This document shows, piece by piece, positions 22,537 through 61,119 of a DNA stretch of 64,000 bases. Below the pieces are notes generated by a model. The model was not told the DNA's origin, ran no database searches, and saw only the letters and a list, made by a program, of their open reading frames with translations. The position numbers were made by a program, and so were the translations under genes. The stretch covers positions 122,518-186,517 of the IMG/VR virus record IMGVR_UViG_3300026521_000471; one strand, 5' to 3'. Numbering within the stretch: position 1 is the stretch's first letter; every line of letters begins with the position of its first letter. Source of the DNA: a virus.

Positions 22537-23946
22537 TTATTTAAAGTTTTTTAATTCTATTTTTTCAACCTCAAATGGGTATTGAGCCTCTTTATAAAAA
22601 TCTTTTCTAGATTTTATATGTTTTTTATCATATTTTAAATTAGATGTTATATCAATTACTGTAACATGTTCTTTCTGTCCAGATTTTCTTCTAAGCCCTC
22701 TTCCAATCGATTGTATAACTTTTGTAAAACTTTTTCCAGGTGTAGGTGCAAGAATTAAGTTGTTAATATGTACAATATCAATTCCAGTACTAAGTAATGA
22801 ATATGTTCCAACTGTTACTAAATTACCACCATAAACGAATTCATTAAATTTCTCTTGTCTTTTATCAACCGTTAATTTTGAACTAATATAACCACACTCT
22901 AGAAATTCTGATAAATCTTCAGCCGGATCTATATTCTTCATCAATATCAATGTGTTACCTTCTAATGAATCAACAATGGCTTTCATTAATTTTTGAAACA
23001 TTTCATTACTTTGTAAAAAAACAGTCTCTTCATGCCAGTCAATAAATGAGCCTAAATATTCTTTAGGGTAAACCAATTCAAAAATATTAATATCTATTGA
23101 AGATAATATATTTCTCTTTTGTAATTCATGTGCTTTTACATCATAAACCACAGGACCAAAACCAGCTGTTAAATTAGCTTTGTCTAAAGGATCTTTTGGC
23201 ACAGTACCCGTCAAACCTATTCTCAAATATGAATTTTTTGCCTCATTCATAATTTGTTGAGCTACATATGCTTTAGCGCCATGTACTTCATCCCATATCA
23301 CACATTCAAAATCTCGTATAAAATGTTTATTATTTTGTAGTGTTTGCCAAGTAGCCACAATATTAATTTCATTATCTTTTTTACCACTACCAAACATACC
23401 GACAGGAATATCAAATTGTTTTATATAATCAAATGTCTGTTTTAACAATGATGATGATGGTACAATGACAATCGTTTTCATATTTAGTTTATTGGCATAT
23501 TTAACGATAGCTGATGTCAATAAGGTATTATGATGAACTGTTCCATTTGCTATTTGATATAAATGATTTTCAGAATTAACTTCGACATCATATAATAAAC
23601 CCTGTTCATTTAGATTCTCTATATTTGTAACTACTGCCATATGTTTTTCATCAACATTATATAATCTATCACCTATAGACAATTCATTGACTTTTTTTAT
23701 AGTTTGGTCATCTAACATTAAGATATGATTATCAGTAGTTATTATATTCTCTATTGCATCAATCTCTAGCTTTATTAAATTATCCTCTTTTACAATAAGA
23801 CCTTTAATATCAACCCATTTACCGACCTCATCTTGAATTTGAATTGGTGTACGTTGAAAATATTCCTCATCTCTACGAAATGCAATATCTTCTTCTAACG
23901 ATATTATTTTAAATAATTGTTCAAAAGTTAATTCTATTTCTTCCAT
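22537..23946 (-). CDS. C-terminal fragment of a split SF2 (UvsW-like) DNA helicase: 137-aa C-intein (IntC) followed by helicase motifs Ia-VI
   Basis: A TAA lies immediately upstream of the ATG. Residues 1-137 carry intein block B (TTDNHILM) and blocks F/G (LLYDVEVNSENHLYQIANGTVHHN). The +1 Thr then starts TLLTSAIVKYA...TIVIVPSSSL (motif Ia), DEVH (motif II), GLTGT (motif III) and QSIGRGLRR (motif VI). The P-loop (motif I) is absent and is found in the N-fragment at 39479..40027. Confidence 0.8.
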   Translation of the reverse strand: MEEIELTFEQLFKIISLEEDIAFRRDEEYFQRTPIQIQDEVGKWVDIKGLIVKEDNLIKLEIDAIENIITTDNHILMLDDQTIKKVNELSIGDRLYNVDEKHMAVVTNIENLNEQGLLYDVEVNSENHLYQIANGTVHHNTLLTSAIVKYANKLNMKTIVIVPSSSLLKQTFDYIKQFDIPVGMFGSGKKDNEINIVATWQTLQNNKHFIRDFECVIWDEVHGAKAYVAQQIMNEAKNSYLRIGLTGTVPKDPLDKANLTAGFGPVVYDVKAHELQKRNILSSIDINIFELVYPKEYLGSFIDWHEETVFLQSNEMFQKLMKAIVDSLEGNTLILMKNIDPAEDLSEFLECGYISSKLTVDKRQEKFNEFVYGGNLVTVGTYSLLSTGIDIVHINNLILAPTPGKSFTKVIQSIGRGLRRKSGQKEHVTVIDITSNLKYDKKHIKSRKDFYKEAQYPFEVEKIELKNFK

Positions 23947-26024: not shown

Positions 26025-26624
26025 TCAATTATAAGGTTCTATATTAAATTCTTCAAATAGAACCTTAAGCCCAACAGTTAATTTTCCCGACTTTGGAAAG
26101 TCAGGAAATTTTTTCTTTCGTCCACTCAATCCATATTCTTTTTTTAATTTATTATAATTTCGTTTAGATACCTTTTGAGCTTTTGGTTCTTCTGATGGAT
26201 GTATATAAAAATTTCCTTCTTCATCTTGATATGCACCAGCTTCTAAATAATCTGCTAAATTTCGTAAAAAATCTGGCAAACTGATCGGGTGGTTAGTTTC
26301 ATCTGCTCCGAAATATCTTTTCCAGTTATTTGTGATTTTTCCTTCCATTGCATTTGCCCTAAACTCTAAAGCATTTCTAATCGTACCTTTTTGTTCAGAA
26401 CATTCTTCATTTTTTAATTTATGAATATGATCTAATACCATTTTATCGAGTTCAACCTCAATTCCTAATAATGGACATATTTTATTATTTTCTAACCATA
26501 ATTTTTCTTTTAATTCTTTTATATTTTTCTGTTTTAATTGTATTAATTGTTTCATAGTTTTATTTATATGATAAAAATTGTAAAATTGATATAAAAAAAA
26601 TAAGGTTTTGTAATGGATGAGCAA
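26025..26624 (-). CDS. putative His-Me finger nuclease (HNH / T4 endonuclease VII-like)
   Basis: ICPLLG...VLDHIHKL...EEC loosely resembles the endo VII CxxC...HLDHDHEL core. Free-standing on the minus strand between plus-strand genes. Confidence 0.35.
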   Translation of the reverse strand: MLIHYKTLFFLYQFYNFYHINKTMKQLIQLKQKNIKELKEKLWLENNKICPLLGIEVELDKMVLDHIHKLKNEECSEQKGTIRNALEFRANAMEGKITNNWKRYFGADETNHPISLPDFLRNLADYLEAGAYQDEEGNFYIHPSEEPKAQKVSKRNYNKLKKEYGLSGRKKKFPDFPKSGKLTVGLKVLFEEFNIEPYN

Positions 26625-28034
26625 ATAGATGATACAGAATATGAAGACGCTTTAGCCGAATTAGAGGCAGAATCATCTTCAAAAAAGAAAAAGAAGAAAA
26701 AAACAGTTGAACATTCAGAAGGCAAACTATTAGATATTGAAGATAAAGAACGAATTTTACTTGCTCAACTTATTAATAACCCAGAATTATTTGTTAAAGG
26801 TATAACTTTTCTAGATAAAGATTTCTTTGAATCAAAAATTAATAAATTAATTGTGGAATTTATGATTGATTATTATGATTTATATAAAAGTATCCCGCCT
26901 GAAGATGCTATACTATTAGAATTAAATTTAGATAACGTACATGATGATTGGTTAGATATAAATAAACCTTGGCCAACAGAGTATCTTGAAGACTATTTAA
27001 ATGCGTTTATAAAAAATATGAGTATGAAAGGTGCTATCGAAGATAGTATTGAATTACTAGAAGAAGAAGATTATGGAACTATTGAGAAGAAGATTAAAGA
27101 TGCTGTAAACGTTGATATTGATACAAAGTTAGGTGTAACCATAGATACTGATAAAGATAATTTTCGTGACTTATTTAAAATGCTAACATCAACTGAAGCT
27201 ACAATTCCAACTGGATGGTGGAACGTAGATGATAAATTAGATGGTGGTGTAACAATACCAAGTTTAAATTATTTATTAGCTAAATCTGGTGGTGGTAAAT
27301 CAATAGGTTTAATAAATTTAGCATGGAATTATATTCAGATGAAAAGGGATGTTATTTATATTTCTCTAGAACTAAAGGAAGAGAAAATCATGAAGAGGTA
27401 TATAACCCACTCAACTAAAATTCCGACCCATCAAATTGAAAAGTCTGAGATGGAAATTTATAACCATCTAAAGAAATGTGATAATAAGGGGTATGGTCGA
27501 TTTACTGTTCATTTCTATCAACCCAATACACTAAGTGCAATGAAGTTGGAATTATTTGTAAGAAATTATTTACAAAAATATAATACAGTACCTATTATTA
27601 TTCTAGATTATGCAGGTTTAATGACACCAAATGGTAAAAATTGGCAAGGTATGTTTGAAAAAGATAAATATGTTTCTGAAGAATTAAGAGCTGTGGCAAC
27701 GTTATTTGATACGATCGTTTGGACAGCAGACCAATATAATAGATGTATATCATTTGGTGAACAGGTAATAACACCGAATGGTAAAAAAAATATTGAAGAT
27801 GTTGAAATAGGGGATAAAGTTCTTGGGGGCAATAATAGTTATCGTACTGTAACAGCGATAACGGAGCCGGAAGAACAAGAAGTATATAAAATTACTTTAA
27901 AAAGTGGAAAAACTATCAAAGTATCAGGAAGACATATCTTCCCAAAAGTTTTAGAAGATGGGAAATTAGTAGAAGATTGCATATTATCTTCATTAAGTAT
28001 AGGTGACAAGTTGGTGGTCTCCGATAAAATATGA
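26613..28034 (+). CDS. DnaB / T4 gp41-like replicative helicase N-extein, interrupted after the QxNR motif by the N-terminal half of a classical split intein (IntN ~99 aa)
   Basis: TGWWNVDDKLDGG...LLAKSGGGKSIGLINLA (Walker A), IIILDYAGLM (Walker B), ...WTADQYNR. This is followed by CISFGEQVITPNGKKNIEDVEIGDKVLG (intein block A), TLKSGKTIKVSGRHIFP (block B) and ...SIGDKLVVSDKI, then a stop. Confidence 0.75.
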   Translation: MDEQIDDTEYEDALAELEAESSSKKKKKKKTVEHSEGKLLDIEDKERILLAQLINNPELFVKGITFLDKDFFESKINKLIVEFMIDYYDLYKSIPPEDAILLELNLDNVHDDWLDINKPWPTEYLEDYLNAFIKNMSMKGAIEDSIELLEEEDYGTIEKKIKDAVNVDIDTKLGVTIDTDKDNFRDLFKMLTSTEATIPTGWWNVDDKLDGGVTIPSLNYLLAKSGGGKSIGLINLAWNYIQMKRDVIYISLELKEEKIMKRYITHSTKIPTHQIEKSEMEIYNHLKKCDNKGYGRFTVHFYQPNTLSAMKLELFVRNYLQKYNTVPIIILDYAGLMTPNGKNWQGMFEKDKYVSEELRAVATLFDTIVWTADQYNRCISFGEQVITPNGKKNIEDVEIGDKVLGGNNSYRTVTAITEPEEQEVYKITLKSGKTIKVSGRHIFPKVLEDGKLVEDCILSSLSIGDKLVVSDKI

Positions 28035-29333: not shown

Positions 29334-31511
29334 ATGGATGTTAAATATTTTTTAGAAAAATTAGGAAGTTTATTAATTATTGGATTTGTTATTATATCCA
29401 CGTCTATTATACTTTATTTTAGCTATAAGTCAAATAATAAAGATATTATGGATGACATTGACAATAATTTACGCCACGAATTGATTATTTTATCTATTGC
29501 GTCCGAAGATTTGTTTAACAAATATAACAATATACTTACAATGTTAGGGGATAATATTTTATCCAAAGATAATAAACAAAAATATTTAGATACAGCATTA
29601 AAATTAGAAACTGATGCAGTGGGCTATGGTTTTATATCACCCGAAGGTAATATATTAATTAACTCCTCAAACGTCGATATAAAGAAGATCTCTAATTTTA
29701 TCTCCAACCCCAAAACTAAAGGAACATTTCTTAAAACTATAAAATCAAAATCATCAATTTTAGGACGGTCATATTTATTTAAACCGACAAATCAATTAAT
29801 TGTACCAATAAGAAAAAGTATTAGGAAAAATTCAAAAGTATATGGTGTACTAGCGGTAGGCATTAATATAAATAAGTCGTTTTCTAATTTATTTACAAAT
29901 AAAATACATAACAATTCTATAATTTTATTAATCAAAAATAACTCAGCTAGAATTCAATATTCAAACGATAATACGTTCGAAATAGATTCTATTTTAAAAA
30001 CCGATAATCCTCGACTTTTTAAAACTATAAATCAAATGACATTGACTAATACATCATTAAATAATATAAAATATAGGGTAGGTGTAAAATTTATTGAAAA
30101 ATACAATCTATGGCTTGTTATAGGCTTTCCTTCAAAAGTTATATCTTCATTAAAAAATGAATGGTTAATAAATGCTGTATCTATATGGTTTGTTTTTAAC
30201 GTAAGTTTTATTATAATGATATTAATTATTAATAAGATTAATAACGATCGGAAAAATGAATTGGAATATATTTCTATACATGATCCATTAACACATATTG
30301 GAAATAGATATTATTTAAATAAGAAAATAGTCGATTACGAAGAATATAGTATGCTATTTTTAGATCTAGACAATTTTAAATTTATAAATGATAACTTCGG
30401 ACATAATTACGGAGATAAATTTTTAGTTTCTATAGCAACAGAACTTAAAAAAAATATTTCTGCTGATGATTTATTAATACGTTTTAGTGGTGATGAATTT
30501 ATAATTATTACTAGGGAAATGAATAAAGATAAATTATTAAGTTTTGCTAAAAGATTATTGAATATGACTAATGAGAAATTTAAATATGAGCATAAGACAA
30601 CCATGAGTATTGGTATTGCACAACGAGAGGGATCTGAAGATCTACATAATGTAAAATATAAAGCAGATTTAGCTTTATATATAGCAAAAGAAGAACTAAA
30701 CACCATTATATTCTATGATAAAAATATAGAAGAATCATTTAAAGAAGAACATTTAATAGAAAATGAACTATTAGAAGGTATTATTTTAAAAGAAATTTTC
30801 ATGGTTTATCAACCACAATTAAATACTAAAAATAAAATCGTAGGAATAGAAGCATTAGTTCGATGGAATAATTCAAAGTTAGGTTATATAAATCCCGAGA
30901 CATTTATCAAAATCGCTGAAAAAAATGGAAATATGATAATTTTAGGTGATCATATATTAAATCAAGTTTTTAGTGATATTAATACATTTAAAAATATAAT
31001 TCCAGATAATTTTAATATATCTATTAATATTTCTGTTAAACAATTTATGGAAGATAACTTTGTACAAAAATTAAAGGATAAATTATACCAATATAAAGTC
31101 AATCCAAATAATATCACATTAGAAGTAACAGAAAATATATTTATTTTAGATTTAAACTATATGGAACAAATAATAAATGATTTGCATACATTGGGTGTAA
31201 AAATTTCTATTGATGATTTTGGAACAGGATACTCTTCTTTATCTTCTGTTAAACATCTGACTATTGATGAAATAAAGATTGATAAATCTTTTGTAGATAA
31301 TATTGAAAACGACCATAGTTCCAAAAGTATGGCTGAAGTAATTATTAAAATGAGTAAAATTTTTAATACCATTATTTTAGCTGAAGGTATAGAAAATATC
31401 AAACAAAAAGAAATTCTTGATAACTTAGGGTGCGATTTCTACCAAGGATATTACTTTTCAAAACCTTTACCATTAACAAAATTAAAAGAGTTCATAAAAA
31501 ATAATATTTAA
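29334..31511 (+). CDS. membrane-anchored sensor protein with GGDEF (SGDEF variant) and EAL domains (c-di-GMP cyclase/phosphodiesterase family)
   Basis: Two predicted transmembrane segments flank a ~250-aa extracytoplasmic region. GGDEF domain: HDPLTHIGNRYYL, LDLDNFKFINDNFGHNYGDKFL, RFSGDEF. EAL domain: EALVRW, LEVTENI, DDFGTGYSS, KIDKSFV, AEGIEN, QGYYFSKP. Confidence 0.8.
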   Translation: MDVKYFLEKLGSLLIIGFVIISTSIILYFSYKSNNKDIMDDIDNNLRHELIILSIASEDLFNKYNNILTMLGDNILSKDNKQKYLDTALKLETDAVGYGFISPEGNILINSSNVDIKKISNFISNPKTKGTFLKTIKSKSSILGRSYLFKPTNQLIVPIRKSIRKNSKVYGVLAVGININKSFSNLFTNKIHNNSIILLIKNNSARIQYSNDNTFEIDSILKTDNPRLFKTINQMTLTNTSLNNIKYRVGVKFIEKYNLWLVIGFPSKVISSLKNEWLINAVSIWFVFNVSFIIMILIINKINNDRKNELEYISIHDPLTHIGNRYYLNKKIVDYEEYSMLFLDLDNFKFINDNFGHNYGDKFLVSIATELKKNISADDLLIRFSGDEFIIITREMNKDKLLSFAKRLLNMTNEKFKYEHKTTMSIGIAQREGSEDLHNVKYKADLALYIAKEELNTIIFYDKNIEESFKEEHLIENELLEGIILKEIFMVYQPQLNTKNKIVGIEALVRWNNSKLGYINPETFIKIAEKNGNMIILGDHILNQVFSDINTFKNIIPDNFNISINISVKQFMEDNFVQKLKDKLYQYKVNPNNITLEVTENIFILDLNYMEQIINDLHTLGVKISIDDFGTGYSSLSSVKHLTIDEIKIDKSFVDNIENDHSSKSMAEVIIKMSKIFNTIILAEGIENIKQKEILDNLGCDFYQGYYFSKPLPLTKLKEFIKNNI

Positions 31512-32824: not shown

Positions 32825-33940
32825 TTGGCTTTACCAAAAAAGAAAAAAATTTTTTCTATCCCACTTAACCCGTACACTTCAAAAGAAGACTTTGAAAACA
32901 TCTTTGTTCCATTCTTAAAAAAGAATGCCGATTGGATTTATGATGTATATTTTACAAGTAGAATCCCACCATTTATGCAAGATGCAATGGGAGCAAATTT
33001 TGATAATAATTCATTAGTACAAATTTTTAATAATGCTATGGCATTAGAACAAGCTACAGGAGTTAGAGTTTCAGCAACTTTCAATAATGTTAATGTTCCA
33101 CCTACTGCAGAGAATTTAGAAATATTTTGTTCAAATCTACAATTTTTATATGATGCAGGACTCAGAAGCATGACACAACCACACAATCATTGGATGATGA
33201 CCGGTGTATTTAAAGAAAAATTTCCCGAATTACAAGTAAAGAATACAGTTTTAAAAAGAGTTGCTACAGCACAAGACTTTTGGACTGCATGTGAAGCAGG
33301 TTATGATTATATTAATATTGATAGAATTCTTTTGCGTGATGAAGAAATGCTAAAGAGAATTAAAAAAGCCCAACTTAAATTTGAAAAAGAAACTGGAAAA
33401 TATGTACCTATCGCATTACTTGCTAATGAAGGGTGTAGAGGTAAATGTCCGGTAATGAATGAACATTATACAATTAATAATGCTAGTGGTAGCAAACAAC
33501 CAGGAACAGACAAACCATATTTTTATCAAAAAATTAGTGAAGTTAGTTGCCCTAAATGGAGATTAGAAGATCCTGCTTATTCATTCAAAATAGGCAACAT
33601 ACCACCATATCGAGAAGATTTTGAAAGACTTTTAGAGTATGTAGATGTAATAAAAACTCATGGTAGAGAAGGGTTTGGACTACTAAATGATACTATCAAA
33701 TTCATTGAGAGTTATATTAATGGTGATGAAGAATTACATGACATTTCAATTAGAGGTCAAATTGAAGATTTAAAAGTCGACCAAAATAAATTGCAATTAT
33801 GGCGAAAACATATTAGAACGTGTCAATTTGAATGTTGGGATTGTCATCTTTGTGATGAACTAGTAGCATCAGCTCAAAAAAAGAAGGATAAAGATTTAGG
33901 TACATCAATAGATGATTTAATAAATTCATATGAAGGATAA
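32825..33940 (+). CDS. hypothetical Cys-rich protein (possible TIM-barrel/metalloenzyme)
   Basis: TTG start after AAGGAG (6-nt spacer). Cys clusters CRGKCPV...C and CQFECWDCHLC. Confidence 0.45.
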   Translation: MALPKKKKIFSIPLNPYTSKEDFENIFVPFLKKNADWIYDVYFTSRIPPFMQDAMGANFDNNSLVQIFNNAMALEQATGVRVSATFNNVNVPPTAENLEIFCSNLQFLYDAGLRSMTQPHNHWMMTGVFKEKFPELQVKNTVLKRVATAQDFWTACEAGYDYINIDRILLRDEEMLKRIKKAQLKFEKETGKYVPIALLANEGCRGKCPVMNEHYTINNASGSKQPGTDKPYFYQKISEVSCPKWRLEDPAYSFKIGNIPPYREDFERLLEYVDVIKTHGREGFGLLNDTIKFIESYINGDEELHDISIRGQIEDLKVDQNKLQLWRKHIRTCQFECWDCHLCDELVASAQKKKDKDLGTSIDDLINSYEG

Positions 33941-38881: not shown

Positions 38882-39486
38882 AACTCGAAACATTAATTTC
38901 AACAGTTAAAGATAAAATTATATACAAAATGGATTTCTATCAATCTATTATTATTATTAATGTTCCAAAGCAAAAAATTTTAAATAAAGGTACTATAATT
39001 TTTTTGCTAAATAAACAATCAGGTGTATTATCTGGAGAATGGTTTAATAATAAAAATAGCAATATAAAATTATTTGGAATTCTAAATAATAAATTTATAA
39101 AATCCATATTAAAAAATAAAAAATTAAGATTATTAAATAGTATCTTACCTGATGTATTAGTCAATAAAGATTTTATAATAGAATATAAATTTCTTTCACC
39201 AGAAGAGAAAAAATTATTGAAAGAGTATATAATATCTTCTGAAGAACAAATACACAACAAGTATATGACATTTGATAATAAATTTAATAAAGTCTCTTGG
39301 GAACAAAGCATTAAACTATCTTCTAACTATTTTGTAGAATGGTGTAAAGATAGCTCAAATATACAAGATTGTATTAAAAATGCAATCAACATTGCTAATA
39401 AAAATTTAGATATAAATTTAAAACGCAGAGCAATTTTAAATAAATGTTTTATAGATATTAGAAAATGGAGAGAAAAAAATGGCTAA
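38878..39486 (+). CDS. hypothetical protein
   Basis: ORF track. Confidence 0.4.
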   Translation: MKLETLISTVKDKIIYKMDFYQSIIIINVPKQKILNKGTIIFLLNKQSGVLSGEWFNNKNSNIKLFGILNNKFIKSILKNKKLRLLNSILPDVLVNKDFIIEYKFLSPEEKKLLKEYIISSEEQIHNKYMTFDNKFNKVSWEQSIKLSSNYFVEWCKDSSNIQDCIKNAINIANKNLDINLKRRAILNKCFIDIRKWREKNG

Positions 39487-40027
39487 AAAAAAGAAAAATA
39501 TACCTATCCATATTACAAAACGTGATTCATCAACATTTGTTTTAAATAAGATTTCGTCTAGTATGTTATATCATGTACAACAAAAATTCGCATATTTACC
39601 ACCAGGTTATAAATTTCAACCTAGATTTAGACTTATGGGTATTAAAGGTGTACAAGTTAAGCTAGTACACGCAGATGGTTCATTCCCAATGGGATTATTT
39701 TCAGAAGTTGTAGAATATTTAACAGAGGTGCAAAAAAAGAAAGTTACTATGAGCAGTGAAGTAATGGAACATTTTTTACCACTAACTGATTTTTTTGAAG
39801 ATGGTATAAAAGATGATATATTCTCAGACTATGAATTCGATGGTAATCCTGTAATATTAAGAGATTATCAATTAGGTGCAGTTGAAGCCGCTTTTGAAAA
39901 TAGAAACGGCTTATTAAATTTATCTACTGGTGCAGGTAAGTGCTTAGGTGGTGAAACTAAAATACGAGTAAAATTAAGTAGTGAACTAATTAAAAAATAT
40001 AAAGTTATTATAAAAGGCGAATTATGA
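39479..40027 (+). CDS. N-terminal fragment of the split SF2 (UvsW-like) helicase: Q-motif and P-loop, followed by a 28-aa N-intein (IntN)
   Basis: ...RDYQLGAVEAAF...LLNLSTGAGK then CLGGETKIRVKLSSELIKKYKVIIKGEL and a stop. CLGGETKIRV fits intein block A (C-L-x-G-[DE]-T-x-[IV]) directly after the Walker A lysine. The matching IntC and C-extein are at 22537..23946 on the minus strand. Confidence 0.75.
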   Translation: MAKKKKNIPIHITKRDSSTFVLNKISSSMLYHVQQKFAYLPPGYKFQPRFRLMGIKGVQVKLVHADGSFPMGLFSEVVEYLTEVQKKKVTMSSEVMEHFLPLTDFFEDGIKDDIFSDYEFDGNPVILRDYQLGAVEAAFENRNGLLNLSTGAGKCLGGETKIRVKLSSELIKKYKVIIKGEL

Positions 40028-57367: not shown

Positions 57368-58771
57368 ATGGCTTTATTAACTTACGATGAAGTATTAGAA
57401 ATCACAAAAATAAATGAAACTTTTAAAATGAAACACCAAAAAATAGGTAACACAGAAATTGCAATGTGTACTTATTTTTTAGCAAATGCAGGTGATTTTT
57501 TTGATGCAAAATTAGATGGCTCTATGGTTAGAGCCACAGAATTAAGAGGTATAACATTTGTAAAAGCTCCAAATTCAGACTGGAAAACATATTTGTTTAT
57601 CGATAAATTTTTTAATATCGGTCAAACAAATGGAACTAATATAACAAATATGGAACTTTCTATCAATGACTCAACTGAAATTTGTAATATTAATAAACTT
57701 TTTATCGATGAAAATGAGAAAACATATCGTGCAATAGATTTAAAGTTAAATATGATTGTTGCTGAATTTGATAGAAATACTGAAACTCATGGGGATTTTT
57801 TTCAAATTTTATCACTAGATAAAAAAGTTTTACCTACATTGAAACCTGAAAATTCTTGGATGTATGAGGATGTAAAAGATTTAGAAATTGTAAGAATTGC
57901 AAATAAAGAAGATGGATCCGCAATAAGATTTCTTTTAATTGAAGGAAAATTAGTGGCTAAAACAAAATTTTCTTTTGAATCAGAACAATGCAAATTAGCT
58001 ATGGAAATAGTTGAAAAAGATCCTAAACTTAAAGCATTTATTTTAACAACTTTAGAGTTTGGATATGCAGCAATTTTTGAAATAGTTTCACCATTTAATA
58101 AAATCGTTTTAACATATCCAGAAACATCTCTTAGATTGTTGCAACTAAGAGATGAAAATAATGATGGGTTATATCTAAATATATATGATAATACATTAGT
58201 AAAAGCATTTAATATCTTGACTGCCAATCAAGAACCTTTATACACACTTGATGAGTTACTTAAATTAAAAGAAACCGTTGAAGATAAAGAAGGTTGGGTA
58301 ATTACATTTGAAAATGGAAAAATGGCAAAGGTAAAAACTGATTGGTATATGTCACTTCATGGTATTTTAACTGATGGGTTAAAAGAACATAAAATAATTG
58401 AAAAGGTTTTAGACGAAACGATTGATGATACTATAGCAATGATACCAGAAGAAAATATTGAAGAACGAGATTTTATTGATGGTATCTCTGAAATTATAAT
58501 TAATCATGTAAATCATTTAGTGTCAGATGCAGAAGCTAAATTTAAAAATTCATGGAATGGAAATAAAAAAGAGTTAGCACTAAAATTTAAGGATGATAAA
58601 CGTGCTTTTCCATATATAATGAGTTTTGCAAATGGAAAAAATATTGAAGAAATTGAAAAACAAGTTATAGATAGAGTTAAATTTGAATGTAGACGTTTAG
58701 AAATGGCTAAACAATACCTTAAAAATTTAGGTTTTGACAAAGAACTCGAAATAAAAATTGAGGATGATTAA
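57368..58771 (+). CDS. rnl1: RNA ligase 1 (T4 Rnl1 / gene 63-like tRNA repair ligase)
   Basis: ELRGITFVKAPNSDWKTYLFIDKFFN, ANKEDGSAIRF (motif I KxDGS), EFGYAAIFEIVSPFNKIVLTYPE and KEGWVITFENGKMAKVKTDWYMSLHG align block by block with T4 Rnl1. Confidence 0.85.
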   Translation: MALLTYDEVLEITKINETFKMKHQKIGNTEIAMCTYFLANAGDFFDAKLDGSMVRATELRGITFVKAPNSDWKTYLFIDKFFNIGQTNGTNITNMELSINDSTEICNINKLFIDENEKTYRAIDLKLNMIVAEFDRNTETHGDFFQILSLDKKVLPTLKPENSWMYEDVKDLEIVRIANKEDGSAIRFLLIEGKLVAKTKFSFESEQCKLAMEIVEKDPKLKAFILTTLEFGYAAIFEIVSPFNKIVLTYPETSLRLLQLRDENNDGLYLNIYDNTLVKAFNILTANQEPLYTLDELLKLKETVEDKEGWVITFENGKMAKVKTDWYMSLHGILTDGLKEHKIIEKVLDETIDDTIAMIPEENIEERDFIDGISEIIINHVNHLVSDAEAKFKNSWNGNKKELALKFKDDKRAFPYIMSFANGKNIEEIEKQVIDRVKFECRRLEMAKQYLKNLGFDKELEIKIEDD

Positions 58772-59619: not shown

Positions 59620-61119
59620 ATGGCAAAATTTAACCAAGGTACTAAAAGTATCCCAAATAGTAAAAATATGGCTGGAGGGGTATCATATGATCGCCCAATA
59701 AAAAAAGAGGTTGCGACTGTTGTTTTAAACTCTATGCTTAATGGTGATTCATATTATGAAAAAGAAGGTGAACGTTTAAAACGAATTGAAACTCTTATCA
59801 CTACATCAAAGTCTGATGCTGAGTTTGTAGCAAAAGCTATGGTGTTTACTAGAACAAATGGTCGTCTTAGAAGTATTTCACATTTCATGGCAAATATTTT
59901 AGCAGAAAATGTAAAAGGTAGTGACTTTTTACGTTCAGCATTAACAAAAGCTATTGTAAGACCGGATGATATGACAGAAATGTTATCACTTTGGGATACA
60001 AGAAATCCAAATAAAATGGTTCCGAATTCACTTAGAAGAGCCTTTAAGAAAGCTTTGGAAACTAAATTTGATGAATATCAATTTCGTAAATATGCTCAAC
60101 CAAAATCAAAAGTGAAACTAAAAGATGTCGTTAAACTAGCACATCCTTCACCTAAGAATTTTGATGATGAAACTATTTTTAAAAGAGTTATCGAAGATCA
60201 ATTAAAGGCTGTTGAAACAGCACAAACTATCAATGCATCTAAAACTGGTGAAGATCGAGTTGAAGCATATATGAAAGAAATTAAATCTGGTAAAATGGGT
60301 TATATGGCAGCATTAAAAAATATTAGAACATTGATGGAAAATAATATTTCAGAAGATGACTTAAAACAATGGTCTAATTTTATAACTGATCCTAAAAGGG
60401 TACAAAAATCAATGGTACTTCCATTTAGATTTGTTGATGCATGGAATGCTGTAAAAGATTTACCTATTAATGAATTTAAGAAAAATATTGTTAAGAAAGC
60501 ACTTGAGAGAGCTTTTGCCCTATCAGCTGGAAATACAAATATTGCTTCTGATGATGAAAAAGTGGCTATTTTACTTGATGAATCAGGTTCTATGGGCGGA
60601 TATTCAAATAATGACCGTAAAACACCATTTTATATTGGTAAAGTATTATCAGCTGCGATGAAAGTAGGTATGGATGATGATAAGTGTCTGTTTTATACTT
60701 GGGCAGATACATGTACAAGAAGAGATATAAAAGGTTTGTCATCTTTTGATTTTATCAATAATTTAAATACTAGAGGTGGAGGTACTGATGTATCAGCTCC
60801 TTTAAAAGAGTTAATTAAAACAAAAACATTTGTTGATAAAATTATAATCTTTAGTGATATGCAGATGTATGGTGGATGGGGAAATATTGGAGATCAACTC
60901 AAAAATTATTTAAAAACATATCGTAAAGAAGTCAATCCAAATGTAAAAGTATTATTTTGGAATTTAGAAGGATATGGTGGTGGTTCACCATTAGATATTG
61001 AAAAAACATCTGATATTTTTGAAGTAGCTGGTTTTTCAGATAGCATGCTTCAAATTATACCTAAATTATGGAGTGATAAAGATTTTTTAATTAAAGAGAT
61101 TGAAGCTATATCACTTTAA
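59620..61119 (+). CDS. rsr: Ro60-related protein (Rsr): TROVE domain plus vWA domain
   Basis: N-terminal NMAGGVSYDRPIKKEVATVVLNSMLNGDSYYEKEGERL (TROVE), KLKDVVKLAHPSP (the Ro60 RLSHLKP region), vWA MIDAS VAILLDESGSMGG and TRGGGTD, IIFSDMQ, and C-terminal VAGFSDSMLQII (Ro60 CGFDTGALDVI). Confidence 0.8.
   Translation: MAKFNQGTKSIPNSKNMAGGVSYDRPIKKEVATVVLNSMLNGDSYYEKEGERLKRIETLITTSKSDAEFVAKAMVFTRTNGRLRSISHFMANILAENVKGSDFLRSALTKAIVRPDDMTEMLSLWDTRNPNKMVPNSLRRAFKKALETKFDEYQFRKYAQPKSKVKLKDVVKLAHPSPKNFDDETIFKRVIEDQLKAVETAQTINASKTGEDRVEAYMKEIKSGKMGYMAALKNIRTLMENNISEDDLKQWSNFITDPKRVQKSMVLPFRFVDAWNAVKDLPINEFKKNIVKKALERAFALSAGNTNIASDDEKVAILLDESGSMGGYSNNDRKTPFYIGKVLSAAMKVGMDDDKCLFYTWADTCTRRDIKGLSSFDFINNLNTRGGGTDVSAPLKELIKTKTFVDKIIIFSDMQMYGGWGNIGDQLKNYLKTYRKEVNPNVKVLFWNLEGYGGGSPLDIEKTSDIFEVAGFSDSMLQIIPKLWSDKDFLIKEIEAISL

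Follow-up and report, generated by a model that had tools for sequence, protein, structure and literature searches.

The 64,000-nucleotide stretch of viral DNA analyzed here (the window; positions 122,518 to 186,517 of IMG/VR record IMGVR_UViG_3300026521_000471) contains a replicative helicase gene that ends before the helicase is complete. The open reading frame (ORF) at 26613..28034 on the plus strand encodes a DnaB/gp41-like protein that runs into the N-terminal half of an intein (IntN) and stops, which raises the question of where the rest of the enzyme is encoded and whether a whole helicase is made. A family of small proteins was identified that carry a C-terminal intein half (IntC) followed by the missing helicase C terminus. 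Comparison of the two families indicates that this replicative helicase is very probably a two-piece protein, with its N-terminal precursor encoded in the window and its IntC-bearing partner encoded at a distance, and that the pieces are probably joined by protein trans-splicing.

The precursor ORF starts with ATG, encodes 473 amino acids (aa), and ends in a TGA stop codon that shares bases with the ATG start of the next ORF (62 aa, function unknown). Exactly the same 473-aa protein is present in JGI, ENA, and Logan assemblies. Its N-extein (aa 1–377; 26613..27743, plus strand) consists of a DnaB N-terminal-like region and a RecA-type core that extends through the H4 motif. The Pfam profile DnaB_C covers aa 198–377, which correspond to profile positions 2–180 of 255 (E 4.9e-14); the match breaks off at the end of the H4 motif ADQYNR, which leaves about 75 positions of the profile uncovered. 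The PHROGs family phrog_19, "DnaB-like replicative helicase", matches aa 32–377 (E 6e-46). The Walker A sequence, or P-loop, AKSGGGKS (aa 223–230; 27279..27302, plus strand) is uninterrupted and has invariant columns at S225–S230 (alignment A3); in some relatives a second, atypical split intein is inserted at this site. No variation is seen in the motifs GGGKS, ILDYAGLM, and DQYNR among the aligned helicase homologs. The H4 motif DQYNR occupies aa 373–377 (27729..27743, plus strand), and the intein is inserted directly after Arg377. The core segments equivalent to SGSIEQDAD and KQRNGP are missing from the precursor and are supplied by the partner only. The earlier note on this DNA had described the ORF as a DnaB/gp41-like helicase ending in an N-intein, and the profile matches confirm that the predicted product is a phage DnaB/gp41-type replicative helicase without its last quarter. 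A tblastn search with the precursor protein against 50,697 deposited phage genomes returned best matches of 25–31% identity, mostly from jumbo phages. Because no record exceeds 31% identity, the source appears to be an undescribed phage, very large and low in GC; the GC content of the window is 27% throughout.

IntN comprises 96 residues (C378–I473; 27744..28031, plus strand), with Cys1 of block A and block B recognized from Hint-type Pfam matches and an alignment with the gp41-1 intein. The junction is ...VWTADQYNR/CISFGEQVITPNGKK... (VWTADQYNR/CISFGEQV; a slash marks an extein–intein boundary or a split point), and the Cys codon is at 27744–27746. The first intein residue, C378, directly follows ADQYNR. 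The conservation alignment took in 15 homologs of the precursor, and this position is Cys in 13 of the 15 and Ser in two. Block B is S438-G-R-H441 (27924..27935, plus strand), a TxxH motif in its SxxH form that aligns with CSEEHLFP of gp41-1. S438, H441, and P444 are invariant in the 15 homologs, and G464 and D465 are also conserved. Precursor residues 378–469 match only Hom_end_hint, Intein_splicing, Hint_2, and PT-HINT, each below its gathering threshold, as half a domain would be expected to score. The earlier description of an approximately 99-aa N-intein with blocks A and B was accurate as to the blocks and slightly long as to the length.

The C-terminal partner is absent from the window, as had been claimed. 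Six-frame segments of the window were compared with the hidden Markov model (HMM) of the partner family described below; the best match had an E value of 0.96 (5.9 bits), and the positive controls scored 221 and 206 bits. By this measure, the C-half lies neither in the 26.6 kb upstream nor in the 36 kb downstream of the precursor. Only noise was obtained when the window was searched by tblastn with the C termini of XaC1, T4, E. coli DnaB, ESh36, and Ssp DnaB, with the Npu DnaE IntC, or with the proteins P0055, P0073, P0155, P0212, and P0241–P0245. A weak tblastn match at 59641..59685 was rejected as a partner; it is the N terminus of a Ro60/TROVE protein. A pattern search of the window for ...HN[CST] located a single intein-like end, which belongs to a UvsW-like helicase (22537..23946, minus strand). 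The partner was also not found within 10 kb of the N-half in relatives at loci L003, L008, L009, and L010.

Intein-free relatives provided the route to the partner. In the contiguous helicases P0055–P0059 (about 44% identical), EQFNR is followed by TGLGDKEANEVSEENIQGGISKLQTCDNMFAMIP..., and a first, mixed C-extein profile (A1) gave output that was swamped by a marine gp41-8-like group. A second profile (A2), composed of the C termini of the closest intein-free relatives only, resolved this problem. Searched against 1.84 billion representative proteins, A2 recovered small proteins with about 38–41 residues (76 in P0245) ahead of a helicase C terminus. These leading residues are an IntC ending in ...LFYCNxILTHN/S. 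A phmmer search with one such protein, P0243, yielded 51 members of the partner family; a search of IMG/VR loci with the A2 profile returned two unrelated loci only. The earlier note had held that the partner must be a small ORF encoded elsewhere, with an IntC ending in HN, and that its absence from the complete genome would refute a split helicase. The family found answers this description and pairs with the N-fragment strain by strain. The member P0319 (201 aa) has a 37-aa IntC ending in THN/S and an approximately 164-aa C-extein with the helicase C terminus. Its junction reads ...DIEVDGDHLFYCNGILTHN/SAAGD and provides a penultimate His, a terminal Asn, and Ser+1, all conserved across the family. 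The C-extein was expected to contain the string RESGxIEQDAD; it carries the phage equivalent, SEENIQGGISKIQAADNV, instead.

The two halves form a recognizable intein when they are combined. A fusion of the window IntN with the P0319 IntC (133 aa plus Ser+1) scores 37.2 bits against the Pfam Intein_splicing profile, above the gathering threshold of 35.8. In a phmmer search, the same fusion matches the gp41-1 intein (6QAZ) from end to end (E 1.2e-19), with 54 of 121 positions identical (45%). Because the fusion passes the Intein_splicing threshold and aligns with 6QAZ, the resemblance of the window IntN to inteins is not due to chance. The alignment also places the split point of both inteins at the same position (...YVKE/MMLKK... 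in gp41-1 and ...VSDKI/MILDE... here), which bears out the proposal that the N-intein reaches the usual split point. The break lies between blocks B and F at the canonical site and leaves 96 aa in IntN and 37 aa in IntC. The P0319 IntC has a net charge of −6, and the central strands of the window IntN (intein aa 45–70) have a net charge of +5. Splicing in silico gives a 541-aa product that stays colinear across the junction with P0055, an intein-free helicase (E 1e-119).

P0319 is most likely the partner of the window strain, an assignment that comes mainly from two-by-two allele pairing across samples. In the window strain, the exact 473-aa N-half (longest contig, 224,467 bp) and P0319 (longest contig, 289,880 bp) occur together in Logan SRR7968103, where they are on contigs of 10,487 bp and 49,912 bp. 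In a sister strain, the N-half is P0001, on Ga0256837_1000002 (221,509 bp), and the partner is P0316, on Ga0256837_1000041 (109,916 bp); this pair occurs in JGI 3300026484 and Logan SRR7968107. The 289,880-bp contig that encodes P0319 is Ga0256828_1000001, which is IMGVR_UViG_3300026521_000003 (L016). The GC content of the partner loci (27.3–27.6%) is close to that of the window (27.2%), and the partner loci did not overlap the window in a blastn comparison. A more distant relative has both halves on a single 89,055-bp contig, Ga0486129_000021. Its partner, P0349 (87,481–88,356), is a strong member of the partner family by HMM, and its N-fragment, P0034 (34,637–35,998), is 52% identical to that of the window; the two genes are on the same strand and separated by a gap of 51.5 kb. 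On this contig, the ortholog of an RNase HII encoded on the partner contig adjoins the ortholog of the DNA ligase encoded in the window, and an ortholog (63%) of the window ORF at 32825..33940 lies 2.2 kb from the partner gene. This interleaving suggests that what is found on two contigs in our strain is one genome in the relative. We infer from the co-occurrence and from this 52%-identical relative that P0319 is encoded on the same genome molecule as the window. If the N-half and partner contigs do not overlap, that genome would exceed 500 kb.

These observations suggest the following course of assembly. The precursor would be translated as a 377-aa helicase fragment with Walker A, Walker B, and H4, followed by the 96-aa IntN, and a second, distant gene would give the 37-aa IntC with its approximately 164-aa C-extein; this gene is most likely that of P0319, which was assembled on another contig. 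The acidic IntC would be bound by the basic strands at the center of IntN. The reconstituted HINT domain would then carry out class-1 trans-splicing, in which Cys378 forms a thioester, Ser+1 attacks it, and the terminal Asn of IntC cyclizes. The sequence ...ADQYNR would thereby be joined to SAAGDV... in a contiguous helicase of about 541 aa. In this product, the C-extein would complete the RecA-type fold, with GGISKIQAADNV corresponding to bacterial SGSIEQDAD and FLKTRDSSGVG corresponding to the bacterial GKQRNGP segment.

The architecture of the precursor is widely conserved. Among 5.8 billion proteins searched, about 35 homolog clusters (427–495 aa, 51–94% identical, at least 91% coverage) were found, and each consists of an N-extein plus IntN with the same end position. 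The N-extein is 99% identical in amino acid sequence to that of the sister strain (P0001, locus L003), with an approximate dN/dS of 0.011. IntN is 73% identical to that of P0001, with a rough dN/dS of 0.17, and the corresponding estimate against P0020 is 0.25. Between P0319 and P0316, 4 of 37 IntC positions and 6 of 164 C-extein positions differ. Divergence between the two strains is thus 27% in IntN and 11% in IntC compared to 1% and 4% in the respective exteins. IntN appears to evolve fast and yet under purifying selection, and this selection argues against a decaying remnant.

Several points weigh against a helicase assembled from one genome by trans-splicing. The N-half and its partner are on different contigs in the assemblies of both close strains, and three IMG/VR scans, by junction or by family, did not find an N-half of this lineage on the 289,880-bp contig. 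That splicing occurs is deduced from the sequences of the halves. The dN/dS estimates are rough because dS is high (0.7–1.6). Finally, the GKQRNGP segment, FLKTRDSSGVG in the partner, only presumably holds the arginine finger.

The alternative that survives best accepts both halves and dispenses with splicing: the halves would associate through the intein as a noncovalent two-chain helicase, or the N-fragment would have a separate function. In favor of this possibility, the halves of split inteins are tight binders, and the case for splicing is drawn from conserved residues. It is nevertheless unlikely, given that Cys1, the block B Ser and His, the penultimate His, the terminal Asn, and Ser+1 are all conserved and that the closest characterized homolog, gp41-1, is reported in the literature to splice.

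The separate contigs could also mean that the halves belong to different replicons, such as a second genome segment, a co-infecting phage, or a satellite, both of which would be needed in one cell. This reading draws on the placement of the halves on separate large contigs in every assembly of both close strains and on a 289,880-bp viral contig that lacks the N-fragment. We consider it quite unlikely. The relative has both halves on one 89-kb contig with orthologs from both of our contigs interleaved along it, the GC contents are equal, and small ORFs on the two contigs have a C-terminal tail motif in common; it is simpler to suppose that a huge genome was assembled in fragments. A related proposal is that the phage has two genome molecules, each replicated or packaged on its own, or, in a milder form, one genome that exceeds 500 kb; we give this a slim chance. 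If there were two molecules, the helicase would be made by trans-splicing only when both were in the same cell. In a single genome of more than 500 kb, the halves would fall into different transcription classes, and splicing would time helicase assembly.

The possibility that the gene is decaying, with its 3' part lost by deletion or rearrangement inside the intein and the ORF left as a nonfunctional remnant, is largely refuted and must be regarded as very unlikely. It takes some encouragement from the absence of a partner in the 64-kb window, or within 10 kb in three related contigs, and from the variation between strains in the region 3' of the ORF. A remnant does not account for an N-extein that is 99% identical to its sister under strong constraint, for constraint on IntN itself, for about 35 clusters of identical architecture with catalytic residues intact, or for a matching partner family that co-occurs strain by strain. 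Almost no credence attaches to an assembly or frameshift artefact, in which a sequencing error would have broken the frame of a contiguous intein-containing helicase: although the UNVERIFIED record of Shigella phage ESh36 does annotate a contiguous gp41 intein as broken pieces, the IntC and C-extein are found in no frame downstream or elsewhere in the window, the identical 473-aa protein with the same downstream genes occurs in the independent JGI, ENA, and Logan assemblies, and the position of the stop coincides exactly with the split point of gp41-1.

A two-piece helicase joined by trans-splicing remains the reading we prefer, and it can be set beside known systems. Dassa et al. (2009) described the split inteins gp41-1 to gp41-9 in environmental phage gp41 helicases (PMC2677866). 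The halves in these "fractured gene" loci typically flank a free-standing homing endonuclease, and genomic uncoupling (step IV), as in cyanobacterial DnaE, was suggested as a possible outcome once the endonuclease is lost (PMC2677866). The native junctions are SGY/SSS for gp41-1 and LNR/SAY for gp41-8 (supplement of PMC7090010). The YNR/SAA junction of the window protein is therefore at the gp41-8 site, whereas its best structural-sequence match is gp41-1. Resemblance to gp41-8 extends to the phage DnaB/gp41 host protein, the insertion after the Arg of the H4 motif, Ser at +1, and a canonical split with a long IntN and short IntC; this comparison was made through the junction and the general architecture. 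It differs in that the gp41-8 halves flank a free-standing endonuclease gene, and the halves here are not adjacent. Marine helicases P0061–P0070 (about 30% identical) also end in an IntN at the same site and have partners (P0155, P0160, and P0212) on the same contigs. The marine N-fragments P0062, P0063, and P0065, with their partners P0155 and P0160, look similar to gp41-8; the helicase exteins of this group and of the window protein are about 30% identical.

The gp41-1 intein (6QAZ, 6RIZ) is the best sequence match and shares the identical split, the SxxH form of block B, and an IntC ending in LFYxNxILTHN/S. The polarity of an acidic IntC and a basic IntN, as described for gp41-1 and gp41-8 (PMC2677866), is also that of the window and P0319 pair. 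It differs from the window intein by insertion three residues further along, by its T4-like cyanophage gp41 host protein, and by its fractured locus around a homing endonuclease. The Ssp and Npu DnaE inteins are similar in that an essential replication protein is made from two halves, whose genes lie far apart and whose products are united by trans-splicing (PMC2677866). They differ in residing in the Pol III alpha subunit of a cellular genome, and the Npu IntC had no tblastn match in the window. Contiguous DnaB inteins likewise place a HINT domain inside a DnaB-family helicase, and the Ssp DnaB mini-intein (1MI8) gives a weak match (E 8e-5), but these are single-chain, cis-splicing elements at other insertion sites. 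The Ssp DnaB intein is inserted within RESG/SIEQDAD. The intein of Shigella phage ESh36 follows ...SDIAE/, 14 residues downstream of the site used here. That element (ON528746.1, L002; 1492..4374) is a large contiguous intein with an endonuclease domain in a T4-like gp41 (CLDKSTVV...ANGILTKN/SAGLPATADF), and the UNVERIFIED record divides the intein-containing gene into three coding sequences.

Split inteins in phage gp41/DnaB helicases are thus already known, and this lineage is new. The fractured-gene arrangement of Dassa et al. (2009) does not describe the window, where adjacent halves around a homing endonuclease were not found, and the distinguishing feature of the lineage, as judged from these loci, appears to be the complete separation of its halves.

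Two nucleases near the precursor bear on the mobility of the intein. The first is an endonuclease VII family protein of 176 aa encoded upstream of the helicase (26025..26555, minus strand; phrog_423, E 1.3e-24). The minus-strand nuclease recorded in the earlier note is real, and its extent there, 26025..26624, is too great: the start is most plausibly the ATG at 26555, which does not overlap the helicase start, and the 199-aa version from the TTG at 26624 is probably too long. A same-strand ORF of matching size lies upstream of the helicase in L003 and L078 (176 aa) and in L009 (192 aa), and the blastn alignment of L009 with the window extends through the nuclease gene. The gene is at the 5' end of the helicase and not at the split point. 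The suggestion that it might be a remnant of intein mobility was rejected on family, position, and conservation, and the gene is read as a putative resident gene of the recombination or resolvase type.

The second nuclease is present in the sister strain only. A free-standing homing endonuclease of 578 aa (L003, 11424..13160, minus strand; phrog_3339, E 3e-115; phrog_559, HNH; Pfam DUF7487) begins 2 bases after the IntN stop codon. The window lacks this gene at the corresponding position, about 28034, and the C-half was not found behind the sister-strain endonuclease. The last approximately 35 nucleotides of the IntN gene cannot be aligned between the window and the sister strain, and the strain of P0020 has three other genes in place of the endonuclease. 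The different genes that follow IntN among these strains point to its 3' flank as a variable insertion hotspot.

The lineage has consequences for both protein engineering and intein evolution. The gp41-1 intein is among the most widely used protein-ligation tools, and the present family adds a new lineage from huge, low-GC uncultured phages with about 35 clusters of N-halves and 51 C-half relatives. Its fast-diverging halves and its Ser1 alleles are raw material for new orthogonal split-intein pairs. It would also provide a phage example of full genomic uncoupling, the end stage of the fractured-gene model, with the halves 51.5 kb apart in the relative and on separate contigs here. The sister-strain homing endonuclease that abuts the IntN stop may be a snapshot of mobility.

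The Ser1 alleles are found at the same insertion point. P0026, P0029, and P0053 have a Ser-starting intein at the QYNR site (QYNR/SIFIGEKV..., SVCLHSKV..., and SLVLNSKI...), and the IntN of this allele is distinct and longer. Two intein lineages therefore appear to share one QYNR insertion point.

The helicase intein is not the only split intein in the window; the earlier note counted it as the second, independent one of the genome, and another is indeed found, in a UvsW-like SF2 helicase. Its N piece (39479..40027, plus strand; 182 aa) ends in ...LSTGAGK/CLGGETKIRVKLSSELIKKYKVIIKGEL, a 28-aa IntN directly after Walker A. Its C piece (22537..23946, minus strand; 469 aa) starts with an approximately 139-aa intein sequence ending in ...NGTVHHN/TLLTSAIV, followed by ResIII/Helicase_C. 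This split intein is atypical, with a very short IntN and a long IntC, and its halves are 16 kb apart on opposite strands. In relatives P0051, P0036, P0043, P0053, and P0060, the DnaB-like helicase is apparently in three pieces. The first piece ends in KSGGGK/CLSFQTLINIKVS..., with a short IntN at the P-loop, and the middle piece has an approximately 150-aa IntC ending in HHN/S and itself ends in a QYNR/C or QYNR/S IntN. P0051 and P0036 show GGGK/C... and ...HHN/S at the Walker A site. A C piece is presumed for these relatives, and one protein would then need two different split inteins. Together, the split UvsW-like helicase and the three-piece DnaB-like relatives suggest that piecewise replication proteins are tolerated, and may be used, in these phages.

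The remaining genes of the window include replication and RNA-repair functions: PhoH-PIN, the UvsW-like helicase, DNA ligase, Pnkp/Hen1, RNA ligase, a Thg1-like protein, and Ro60/TROVE. The RNA-repair and quality-control genes form a cluster that is unusual for a phage (43072..48793, 53349..54488, 57368..58771, and 59620..61119). Its members are a Hen1 methyltransferase, Pnkp (kinase/phosphatase/ligase), a Thg1-like tRNA-His guanylyltransferase, a T4 Rnl1-type RNA ligase, and a Ro60/TROVE-vWA protein. Also encoded, on the partner contig, are Tpt1 (PTS_2-RNA), a CYTH protein, a class II aminoacyl-tRNA synthetase, and an Apyc1 anti-Pycsar nuclease. Downstream of the precursor, 29334..31511 (plus strand) encodes a protein of 725 aa that combines a Cache-like sensor region with the GGDEF and EAL domains of cyclic-di-GMP turnover. 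It is kept in the sister strain, and the strain of P0020 has a dCache-GGDEF protein instead. Finally, small ORFs that share the C-terminal tail [FY]PE[LK][WF][VI]-stop, for example YPELWV, lie around the partner gene (L016, 51..10690). L016 has 10 of them within 12.8 kb, and the window has three (ORF ends 45470, 52752, and 62336); they seem to be small paralogs, of unknown function, that belong to one large family.

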